Virus record (IMG/VR): IMGVR_UViG_2737471849_000007
Length of the DNA: 22,608 nucleotides
Direction: 5' to 3' (one strand)
From: a virus
Lineage: Duplodnaviria; Heunggongvirae; Uroviricota; Caudoviricetes
Shown: in pieces, positions 9,204 to 11,833 of the stretch
How positions within the stretch are numbered: the first letter of the stretch is position 1
Layout of the letters: each line of letters opens with the position of its first letter
Notes under the pieces: generated by a model
Databases searched by the model: none
Seen by the model: only the letters and a program-made list of their open reading frames with translations
What the model was told of the DNA's origin: nothing
Made by a program: the position numbers and the translations under genes

Positions 9204-9271
9204 GAGACCCGGCGGGGGAGAAATCCCTCGCCACCTCTGATGTGGCAGGCATCCTCAACGCACCCGCACTT

Positions 9272-9299
9272 AACCCGCTTCGGCGGGTTTTTGTTTTTA
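9272..9299 (+). terminator. Intrinsic terminator after relB-relE-hokD
   Basis: CCCGC-ttcg-GCGGG hairpin followed by TTTTTGTTTTTA. Confidence 0.6.
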
Positions 9300-9419: not shown

Positions 9420-9671
9420 ATGATGAACATCGAAGAACTGCGTAAAATTTTTTGTGAAGATGGCCTCTATGCTGTGTGCGTTGAAAATGGAAATCTTGTT
9501 AGTCATTACCGCATTATGTGTTTGCGAAAGAATGGGGCTGCGTTAATTAATTTTGTGGATGCTCGGGTCACGGACGGATTTATCTTGCGCGAAGGTGAGT
9601 TTGTCACTTCATTACAGGCATTGAAAGAGATCGGAATAAAAGCTGGCTTTTCTGCTTTTTCAGGAGAATAA
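9420..9671 (+). CDS. rem: Prophage protein Rem (83 aa)
   Basis: Track ORF of 83 aa; GGAAGGA RBS 5 nt upstream; length and position match remembered rem. Confidence 0.75.
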   Translation: MMNIEELRKIFCEDGLYAVCVENGNLVSHYRIMCLRKNGAALINFVDARVTDGFILREGEFVTSLQALKEIGIKAGFSAFSGE

Positions 9672-9737
9672 ACTCATCTACAATCTTGCGCGGGGCTGAA
9701 CTCCCGCTGAGTAACACCGTGCCACCGGAGAAAACCG

Positions 9738-10016
9738 ATGGCACGCAACGCAAAATATTACAATTCTGATAATTCGCCCGTTCTTGCCTGCACGCACGGG
9801 CGGTATTCTCACGCATTCAAGTCTGAATGGTTCCAGCACCCTCCATGCACTGCAGAACAGGCCGAATGGCTGATTCATTCTTACCGCAGGCGCGGGTTCG
9901 AGGTTAAGAAAGCTCTCAGTCTCGACTATCGGCACTGGATAATCTCTGTCAGGCTGCCTTATTCCGAACGCCCACCACGTGCGTCCCGCACTTTCCAGCA
10001 ACGGATCTGGAGGTAA
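9738..10016 (+). CDS. Hypothetical protein (92 aa), possibly translationally coupled to ydfU
   Basis: ATG 9738 preceded by GGAGAAAA; its stop TAA (10014-10016) abuts the ydfU GTG start; sequence is Cys/His-containing and protein-like. Confidence 0.4.
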   Translation: MARNAKYYNSDNSPVLACTHGRYSHAFKSEWFQHPPCTAEQAEWLIHSYRRRGFEVKKALSLDYRHWIISVRLPYSERPPRASRTFQQRIWR

Positions 10017-10017
10017 C

Positions 10018-11067
10018 GTGCGGGTATTACTTAGACCTGTTCTGGTGCCTGAGCTTGGGCTGGTGGTCCTTAAGCCGGGCCGTGAATCCATACAGATATT
10101 TCATAATCCTCGAGTGCTGGTGGAACCGGAACCAAAAAGCATGCGTAATCTGCCATCCGGAGTCGTTCCTGCCGTTCGCCAGCCGCTGGCGGAAGACAAA
10201 ACATTGCTGCCGTTTTTTAGTAACGAACGGGTGATTCGTGCTGCTGGCGGCGTTGGCGCATTGTCCGACTGGCTATTACGTCATGTTACATCCTGCCAGT
10301 GGCCTAATGGCGATTACCATCACACTGAAACAGTCATTCACCGTTATGGTACCGGCGCAATGGTGTTGTGCTGGCACTGCGACAACCAACTGCGTGACCA
10401 GACATCGGAATCACTGGAGCTGCTTGCTCAACAAAATCTGACAGCATGGGTGATTGACGTCATCCGTCACGCAATAAGCGGTACGCAGGAGCGGGAATTA
10501 TCTTTGGCTGAATTATCCTGGTGGGCGGTCTGCAATCAGGTGGTGGATGCACTACCTGAGGCTGTATCGCGTCGTTCGCTGGGATTACCAGCGGAAAAAA
10601 TCTGCTCGGTGTACCGCGAAAGCGACATCGTACCGGGAGAGCAGACCGCCACCAGCATATTGAAACAACGCACAAAAAATCTTGCACCGTTGCCTTACGC
10701 CCACCAGCAACAAAAATCACCACAGGAAAAGACGGTGGTAAGCATCACCGTTGATCCAGAGTCTCCGGAATCTTTCATGAAGCTGCCTAAACGTCGCCGC
10801 TGGGTTAAGGAGAAATACACACGTTGGGTTAAGACACAGCCGTGTGCTTGCTGCGGTATGCCAGCCGACGATCCGCATCATCTGATTGGTCACGGGCAGG
10901 GCGGAATGGGAACAAAAGCACATGATCTCTTTGTGTTGCCTTTGTGCAGAAAGCATCACAACGAGCTGCATACGGATACAGTGGCATTTGAAGATAAGTA
11001 TGGCTCCCAACTGGAGCTGATATTTCGTTTTATCGATCGCGCGCTGGCAATTGGCGTACTGGCGTAA
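10018..11067 (+). CDS. ydfU: DUF968-like prophage protein YdfU (349 aa from GTG 10018; 362 aa from ATG 9979)
   Basis: Track ORF 9979..11067; internal GTG at 10018 with GGAGG 4 nt upstream gives 349 aa; C-terminal motif CACCGMPADDPHHLIGHG...CRKHHNELH resembles an HNH/zinc-finger signature. Confidence 0.75.
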   Translation: MRVLLRPVLVPELGLVVLKPGRESIQIFHNPRVLVEPEPKSMRNLPSGVVPAVRQPLAEDKTLLPFFSNERVIRAAGGVGALSDWLLRHVTSCQWPNGDYHHTETVIHRYGTGAMVLCWHCDNQLRDQTSESLELLAQQNLTAWVIDVIRHAISGTQERELSLAELSWWAVCNQVVDALPEAVSRRSLGLPAEKICSVYRESDIVPGEQTATSILKQRTKNLAPLPYAHQQQKSPQEKTVVSITVDPESPESFMKLPKRRRWVKEKYTRWVKTQPCACCGMPADDPHHLIGHGQGGMGTKAHDLFVLPLCRKHHNELHTDTVAFEDKYGSQLELIFRFIDRALAIGVLA

Positions 11068-11080
11068 GTGGAGAACGAGC

Positions 11081-11833
11081 ATGAACCTTGAAGCCTTACC
11101 AAAATATTACTCCCCAAAATCTCCAAAATTGAGCGATGACGCTCCAGCGACAGGCACCGGTTGTTTAACAATTACGGATGTAATGGCAGCGCAGGGGATG
11201 GTGCAGTCGAAAGCACCACTTGGGTTGGCCTTATTTCTGGCAAAAGTTGGTGTTCAGGACCCTCAGTTTGCGATTGAAGGCCTGCTAAATTACGCGATGG
11301 CACTGGATAACCCGACATTGAACAAATTGAGTGAAGAAATCCGGTTACAGATTATTCCTTACCTCGTGAGTTTTGCCTTTGCTGATTACTCCAGGTCTGC
11401 GGCAAGTAAGGCTCGCTGTGAGCATTGTTCAGGTACGGGATTTTATAATGTATTGCGCGAAGTGGTGAAACACTACAGACGCGGGGAATCTGTAATCAAG
11501 GAAGAATGGGTGAAGGAACTATGTCAGCATTGCCATGGTAAGGGCGAAGCCAGCACAGCGTGCAGAGGGTGTAAGGGTAAAGGGATTGTTCTGGATGAAA
11601 AAAGAACCCGGTTTCATGGCGTACCGGTATATAAGATTTGTGGGCGTTGTAATGGAAACCGGTTTAGTCGTTTACCGACCACGCTGGCACGACGTCATGT
11701 CCAGAAGCTGGTACCAGACCTGACCGATTATCAGTGGTATAAGGGGTATGCGGACGTCATTGGTAAACTGGTAACAAAGTGCTGGCAGGAAGAAGCATAC
11801 GCGGAAGCGCAATTGAGGAAGGTGACGAGATAA
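11081..11833 (+). CDS. quuQ: Late-gene antiterminator Q (250 aa from ATG 11081)
   Basis: Track ORF 11051..11833; Cys-rich zinc-binding region (CEHCSGTG...CQHCHGKG...CRGCKGKG...CGRCNG); followed by a promoter plus short-transcript terminator. Confidence 0.8.
   Translation: MNLEALPKYYSPKSPKLSDDAPATGTGCLTITDVMAAQGMVQSKAPLGLALFLAKVGVQDPQFAIEGLLNYAMALDNPTLNKLSEEIRLQIIPYLVSFAFADYSRSAASKARCEHCSGTGFYNVLREVVKHYRRGESVIKEEWVKELCQHCHGKGEASTACRGCKGKGIVLDEKRTRFHGVPVYKICGRCNGNRFSRLPTTLARRHVQKLVPDLTDYQWYKGYADVIGKLVTKCWQEEAYAEAQLRKVTR

Follow-up and report, generated by a model that had tools for sequence, protein, structure and literature searches.

The DNA analysed here is a window of 22,608 nt (the whole stretch; IMG/VR virus record IMGVR_UViG_2737471849_000007, Caudoviricetes), which corresponds to the Qin cryptic prophage of Escherichia coli K-12; the strand given here runs against the MG1655 numbering. 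Its + strand carries, in this order, relB, relE, hokD, rem, a 92-codon open reading frame (ORF) referred to below as ORF92, ydfU and ydfT/quuQ, and the placement of ORF92 and ydfU between the replication/toxin-antitoxin (TA) genes and the gene for antiterminator Q places this part in a lambdoid prophage's nin region, immediately ahead of Q. The 1.7-kb stretch around ORF92 and ydfU is 100% identical to that of K-12 derivatives, and the region was matched in 4919 of 5426 complete E. coli genomes. We think it likely that ORF92 and ydfU are separate cistrons of the rightward nin operon, with ORF92 encoding a genuine protein, YdfU being a two-domain protein with an HNH C-terminal domain, and expression of ydfU being tied to translation of ORF92. 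What the locus shows is a gene missed by the reference annotation within an ordinary phage operon, neither a split gene nor a new system. Our observations concern the status of ORF92 as a gene, its family and genomic contexts, the absence of real fusions to ydfU, and the fold and motif of the HNH domain; ORF92 was already known to the NCBI annotation pipeline and the PHROG catalogue, and YdfU as an HNH nuclease.

The initial annotation had described an unannotated ORF with a GGAG ribosome-binding site (RBS) and an ATG at 9738 that ends where the GTG of ydfU sits. The start signals were located exactly as described (Table 1), and the arrangement CCGGAGAAAACCG-ATG was present at the ORF92 start in 82 of 89 E. 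coli-type loci; at the other end, a single base (C10017) separates the TAA from the ydfU GTG, which lies in a different frame. The ORF is unannotated in the MG1655 reference record (NC_000913.3) only, in which nothing is annotated between rem and ydfU and where ORF92 would occupy complement(1644306..1644584), coordinates converted from the annotated position of ydfU. The NCBI Prokaryotic Genome Annotation Pipeline (PGAP) calls the identical ORF as hypothetical protein WP_012304870.1, including in the K-12 derivative XL1-Blue and in O157 and CFT073 prophages, and PHROG holds its family as PHROG 1212. Literature searches by genome coordinate or protein accession returned nothing relevant, and one on nin-region nucleases yielded no further information.

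The length of 92 aa proves nothing by itself, since the window holds 39 six-frame ORFs of at least 90 aa. Selection was assessed with Nei-Gojobori ratios of nonsynonymous to synonymous substitution rates (dN/dS), calculated for ORF92 and five divergent E. coli variants (nucleotide identity 82-92%). The ratio was 0.14-0.22 in the ORF92 frame and roughly 0.8-3.4 in other frames, the sole exception being the antisense frame whose third codon positions coincide with those of ORF92 (0.21-0.43), an artefact expected from overlap with the constrained frame. Differences between variants were concentrated in the third codon position (in one example, counts of 12, 9 and 30 for the first, second and third positions), length variants differed by whole codons, and purifying selection on the frame held down to 63% protein identity. 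The core (residues 27-92) had a dN/dS of 0.07-0.18, versus 0.31-0.56 for residues 1-26 in the three comparisons with measurable dS. This frame-specific conservation sets ORF92 above chance ORFs, and ORF92 is a true, conserved protein-coding gene. The 137-aa ORF antisense to it was rejected as spurious: it is interrupted by stops in several variants, its dN/dS was 0.8-3.4, and its frame is not the antisense frame that shares third positions with ORF92.

Table 1. Features of the ORF92-ydfU locus (positions in the window).
Feature	Position	Strand	Description
rem	9420..9671	+	Upstream neighbour of ORF92, conserved in E. coli-type prophages
Antisense ORF	9678-10091	-	137 aa, covers all of ORF92; rejected as a gene
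ORF92 Shine-Dalgarno	9726..9729	+	GGAG, 8 nt 5' of ATG, read directly
ORF92	9738..10016	+	92 aa; ATG at 9738, TAA at 10014-10016
ORF92 N-terminal extension	9738..9815	+	Residues 1-26; Escherichia-specific, weakly constrained, predicted disordered
ORF92 core	9816..10013	+	Residues 27-92; conserved 66 aa, predicted beta-alpha-beta-beta and basic C-terminal tail PPRxSRTFQQRIWR
Predicted RNA hairpin	9985..10024	+	5' arm 9985-9998 (ORF92 codons 83-87); 3' arm described in the text
ydfU Shine-Dalgarno	10009..10013	+	GGAGG inside last ORF92 codons, 4 nt 5' of GTG
ydfU (b1560)	10018..11067	+	349 aa, GTG start
YdfU N-terminal domain	10180..10602	+	Residues ~55-195; predicted, confidence score ~90; no known family
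DUF968 (Pfam PF06147)	10495..11055	+	Residues 160-346; 256.8 bits against a cut-off of 27.8, whole model covered
YdfU linker	10603..10791	+	Residues 196-258; variable length, indels in alignment; confidence score <50 for 196-207 and 221-258
HNH/His-Me finger core	10843..10971	+	Residues 276-318; C276-x2-C279, H287-H288, D303, C310-x2-H313, H314, H318
ydfT/quuQ	11081..11833	+	Antiterminator Q homologue directly 3' of ydfU

By profile comparison, ORF92 is the E. coli form of a 66-aa family from lambdoid prophages of Enterobacterales. Residues 27-92 matched positions 1-66 of 66 of PHROG 1212 (E 1.7e-35), a 66-residue family without assigned function, while Pfam (E up to 1), NCBIfam and PADLOC gave no match to ORF92, and searches against solved structures returned only matches to RNase T2 at E 0.1-0.2, which were dismissed as chance. 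A word-indexed search found 129 relatives (58-100% identical, mostly 88-92 aa), the named ones all from Escherichia/Shigella, and a hidden Markov model (HMM) scan of 1.84 billion cluster representatives gave just 72 matches, nearly all of 38-109 aa and many of exactly 66 aa. The 66-aa form was found by tblastn in the cultured phages Gifsy-2, mEp237, phiES15, SPN3UB and PY54, and also in Klebsiella, Edwardsiella, Hafnia, Erwinia and Citrobacter phages; the family consensus reads MKxxWF..EAxEL..RYRxRG..K.LS.D..W.V.V.LPES..PR..YQQRxW. Relatives in other genera begin where ORF92 residue 27 aligns. The Escherichia lineage has a TTC codon in place of the family start Met, so translation must start at the upstream ATG, which adds 26 residues. 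An AlphaFold 2 (AF2) model of ORF92 built on a 53-sequence alignment had a mean predicted local distance difference test (pLDDT, the confidence score of Table 1) of 66.6, with residues 1-23 below 50 and a moderately confident beta-alpha-beta-beta core followed by a short C-terminal helix.

At the junction of the two genes, among the E. coli-type loci, the ydfU Shine-Dalgarno (SD) GGAGG was conserved in 87 of 89, and the stop and start were arranged as TAA-C-GTG in 85 and as TAA-T-GTG in 2. The 3' arm of the hairpin predicted here covers the ydfU SD (10007-10013) and GTG-CGGG (10018-10024), with UAAC (10014-10017) bulged out. The 56-nt fold had a predicted energy of -21.1 kcal/mol (z -2.75; 4 of 200 shuffles were equally stable) and made up 53% of the ensemble; the 121-nt context was not unusually stable. 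The hairpin was predicted in all 7 distinct junction variants, in which the three variable positions of the 5' arm change from C to U with retention of G-U pairs. No compensatory changes occurred among these variants because the 3' arm is invariant. With its 1-nt spacing, an SD within the upstream ORF, a weak GTG and a predicted hairpin over SD and start, the arrangement resembles classical coupled phage and operon gene pairs, and the translational coupling that the initial annotation had suggested is plausible on these grounds. ORF92 and ydfU are probably translationally coupled: the SD and GTG of ydfU would be paired to ORF92 codons 83-87 until a ribosome finishing ORF92 unmasks them, and the layout supports coupling through such a hairpin. 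Two further hairpins were predicted in the ORF92 leader (9690-9745, +; 101-nt fold, z -2.17). The first (9690-9707) has one compensatory G-C to A-U change in an O157-type variant and in the second the ORF92 AUG is base-paired along with some of its SD; neither is kept where the upstream sequence differs, so the hairpin around the ORF92 start was set aside.

The GTG start of YdfU was confirmed by alignment, in which relatives of 45-58% identity begin MRALL. Judged by motif, profile and predicted fold, the C-terminal domain of YdfU is an HNH (His-Me finger) nuclease domain of the DUF968/YbcO group, putatively zinc-stabilised. The classification is not new: DUF968 and DUF1364/YbcO were placed together in His-Me finger group 7 by Jablonska et al. 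2017, who named YdfU (PMC5714182), and the DUF968 HNH motif was described by Curtis et al. 2014. The HNH-like cluster that had been noticed as CxCCG...HH...CRKHHNELH was confirmed at residues 276-318, and the Pfam search proposed alongside it returned DUF968 far above its cut-off (Table 1). HNHc_6 (E 6e-6) and RecA_dep_nuc (E 0.004) fell just under Pfam thresholds, PHROG 96 ('HNH endonuclease') matched full-length YdfU, and a profile of the C-domain aligned with that of YbcO across the HNH core (E 2e-4). When the family profile was compared with solved structures, sub-threshold matches to McrA and YbcO were obtained; a match of YdfU alone to a PNGase structure was judged spurious, and NCBIfam and PADLOC gave no match to YdfU. 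In an alignment of 63 sequences reaching down to 51% identity, C276, C279, H287, H288, D303, C310 and H318 were invariant and H314 nearly so, and position 313 alternated between His and Cys, as expected of a zinc ligand. H287, H288, H314 and H318 align with the HH and C-x2-C-H-x3-H of McrA. The domain has the beta-beta-alpha-metal fold, with a putative catalytic His where the first strand ends and a putative metal-binding His/Asn on the helix, and two Cys pairs (CxxC ... CxxC/H) form a putative structural zinc site. The earlier remark that DUF968 proteins have no established function still holds experimentally, as the literature search found no published biochemistry for YdfU, any DUF968 protein or YbcO.

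AF2 modelling of YdfU on an alignment of 63 sequences of 51-90% identity gave two confident domains (residues ~55-195 and 260-349, pLDDT ~90) with a disordered linker between them. In the N-terminal domain, C93, H101, C118, C121 and N123 are invariant and lie on a predicted beta-beta-alpha element; the domain matched no Pfam family and no solved structure, only PHROG 11007 ('unknown'). Residues 93-126 (10294-10395, +) read C-x2-P-x2-D-x-HH ... LC-x2-C-x-N-x-L, in parallel with the C-terminal HNH core. A degenerate second HNH finger was considered for this domain, but the resemblance is unproven: hhalign comparison of N- and C-domains gave no significant score, nor one above those of column-shuffled profiles. 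YbcO, encoded by the DLP12 prophage (DUF1364/PF07102; PDB 3g27), is a 96-aa single domain, in contrast to the 349 aa of YdfU with its extra ~140-residue N-terminal Cys/His domain and disordered linker. P1 Ref, a RecA-dependent HNH nuclease (PDB 3plw), has a disordered N-terminus where that of YdfU is predicted to be a folded Cys/His domain, and the RecA_dep_nuc score of YdfU was 17.8 bits, below the cut-off of 26.9. Like YdfU, lambda NinG/Rap (PF05766), a junction-specific endonuclease, is a His-Me finger nuclease encoded just upstream of Q, and in Gifsy-2 and Edwardsiella phage GF-2 the NinG gene has an ORF92-family gene directly 5' of it; NinG differs from YdfU in domain layout, shows no significant profile similarity to its C-domain (hhalign E 0.037), and in lambda itself is preceded by the small gene of NinF, unrelated to ORF92. 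By analogy, Rap is the likely functional model for YdfU, that is, for the cutting of branched recombination intermediates, and YdfU would be active as a nuclease on intermediates of recombination or replication, like Rap, RusA and P1 Ref.

Two kinds of irregular YdfU record were encountered. Fusions of YdfU to the Q antiterminator (607 aa; P0123, P0124 and P0126, spanning 10018-11833, +) occur in few E. coli assemblies, on 1-6 contigs each, and presumably reflect a lost ydfU stop codon or sequencing error. Records titled as metagenome-assembled genomes of Veillonella parvula, Geobacteraceae and Caulobacter segnis (L006, L012 and L017) carry enterobacterial prophage DNA, most likely through binning contamination; the YdfU of L006 is 99% identical to the K-12 protein.

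The neighbours of the ORF92 family were surveyed at 280 loci obtained from four single seeds, which reduced to 207 distinct combinations of the small gene with the gene that follows it, with representative labels checked by Pfam; with only four seeds and many related prophages, this census is not unbiased. A nuclease gene was the immediate next gene in ~93% of the 207 distinct contexts, usually with overlapping stop and start. The next gene encoded NinG/Rap in 72 distinct pairs (mostly with an ATGA overlap), YdfU/DUF968 in 56 (with a 1-nt gap), a RusA-like resolvase in 54 (followed by a YdfU-like gene in 47) and YbcO in 10. Seven of 11 cultured phages inspected had the nuclease gene directly 3' (Gifsy-2, mEp237, phiES15, Klebsiella phi18.2, GF-2, Chris1 and PhiR46_1). 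In phages of Hafnia, Erwinia and Pantoea, one to three genes separate the small gene from the nuclease gene; Erwinia phage 59 has a methyltransferase gene and NinF between the ORF92-family gene and NinG, and PY54 has no annotated nuclease 3' of it. Small proteins at least 80% identical to each other were paired with different nucleases: one cluster had NinG or YbcO, another YbcO or RusA. In Enterobacterales prophages the small gene therefore sits at the 5' border of the recombination-nuclease genes and is bound to no single nuclease. The ORF92 protein would act in the same DNA-recombination module as the nuclease.

The initial annotation had offered an ancestral fusion as an alternative to coupling, and the two frames, offset by +1 and abutting, with the ydfU frame remaining open over the 74 nt that precede the ORF92 stop, would suit halves of an ancestral gene split by a frameshift or joined by programmed frameshifting. 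Such a history is hardly credible. None of the ORF92 relatives examined (129 plus 72 remote representatives, nearly all of 38-143 aa) was fused to DUF968, and the characteristic sizes are 66-92 aa for ORF92 relatives and overwhelmingly 329-355 aa for those of YdfU. The sole fused protein in the databases (P0122, 438 aa) is a singleton that has lost a few junction residues; the remaining long forms of YdfU contain internal duplications or are joined to neighbouring genes, on one to few contigs. YdfU relatives of 45-58% identity (Enterobacter, Buttiauxella, Shigella and Symbiopectobacterium) share the start Met and have unrelated genes upstream, for Ant/Rha or KilA-N antirepressors, and no ORF92; the 66-aa family stands alone before NinG, YbcO and RusA; and no slippery heptamer was seen on reading the 74-nt overlap of both frames. 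On these comparisons ORF92 is not a detached piece of YdfU, and the split-gene idea is already contradicted. Another alternative is that ORF92 is nonfunctional in K-12, its open frame being incidental to an untranslated leader with a Rho-utilisation (rut) site that silences ydfU. In published data on K-12, one of the top-ranked Rho-dependent terminators lies upstream of ydfU, and mutation of nusG or rho, or treatment with bicyclomycin, raised ydfU, and not rem, by 1.4-2.8, in a table whose fold-change units are not stated (PMC9160355). Nothing but ORF92 and its leader lies between rem and ydfU, and 9650-10050 is C-rich and G-poor: most 100-nt windows have a GC skew between -0.1 and -0.22, versus +0.3 in rem. 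This stretch coincides with the interval of the published terminator (PMC9160355). The absence of ORF92 from the curated MG1655 annotation would also fit a mere leader. We nevertheless regard this explanation as very improbable, given that purifying selection is frame-specific (bar the antisense frame with coincident third positions) and extends to 63% protein identity, that indels come in multiples of three, that homologues are kept across Enterobacterales phages, that RBS and ATG are conserved, and that a rut site and a coding function can coexist. If ORF92 is translated, as we favour, ribosomes on it would shield the C-rich, G-poor RNA from Rho, and ORF92 translation may govern both ydfU initiation and Rho access; the Qin site is possibly the counterpart of the lambda nin-region terminators.

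The adjacency to nuclease genes could also mean that the ORF92 protein is a dedicated partner of nin-region nucleases (an activator, inhibitor or targeting subunit), kept upstream and co-translated for that reason, and both the census and the seven cultured phages speak for it. The exchange of different and partly unrelated nucleases beside small proteins of at least 80% identity argues against a specific physical partner. The YdfU relatives without ORF92, the intervening genes in Erwinia phage 59 and the situation in PY54 also speak against the idea; moreover, these phages almost always have a nuclease gene ahead of Q, so adjacency may be mere conserved gene order. We hold a dedicated partnership to be unlikely. 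ORF92 and ydfU occur independently of each other, which does not fit the obligate co-occurrence of a nuclease-immunity or TA pair, and neither protein matched such a system in PADLOC or NCBIfam. A related and equally doubtful proposal is that PHROG 1212 represents an unrecognised, nuclease-agnostic accessory factor, co-translated with Rap, YbcO, YdfU or RusA and needed to direct or restrain the nuclease on replication or recombination intermediates. Lambda NinE and NinF are comparable to ORF92 in size and in position between NinB/Orf and the nuclease gene, but the ORF92 family resembles neither in sequence; its profiles were compared with lambda NinD, NinE, NinF and NinH by hmmsearch and hhalign, and no similarity emerged. 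Erwinia phage 59 carries both NinF and an ORF92-family gene, and the two are therefore not equivalents.

For users of the MG1655 annotation, the lack of a conserved, selected 92-codon gene is a gap whose closure has small but real practical value. Since the ydfU initiation site appears to depend on ORF92, knock-outs, reporter fusions and transcriptome or Rho studies that take rem-ydfU as intergenic may be misread. The most interesting point is the widespread 66-aa family found before four kinds of recombination nuclease, a cheap candidate for work on lambdoid phage recombination, and the conserved N-terminal Cys/His domain of YdfU is a further object of interest at the locus.

Upstream of ORF92, Rem (83 aa; PHROG 340, of unknown function) was the 5' neighbour in 53 distinct pairs, from E. 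coli-type prophages, and in Kosakonia/Phytobacter-type prophages its place is occupied by an unrelated-looking protein of 81-87 aa (47 pairs; for example, L018:3049-3309). Just 3' of hokD and outside ORF92-ydfU, a sub-threshold Rfam match to isrK, an Hfq-binding small RNA of Gifsy-1, was found at 9212-9293 (+; score 25 bits, gathering threshold 50, E 0.016), overlapping an intrinsic-terminator-like hairpin at 9272-9289.

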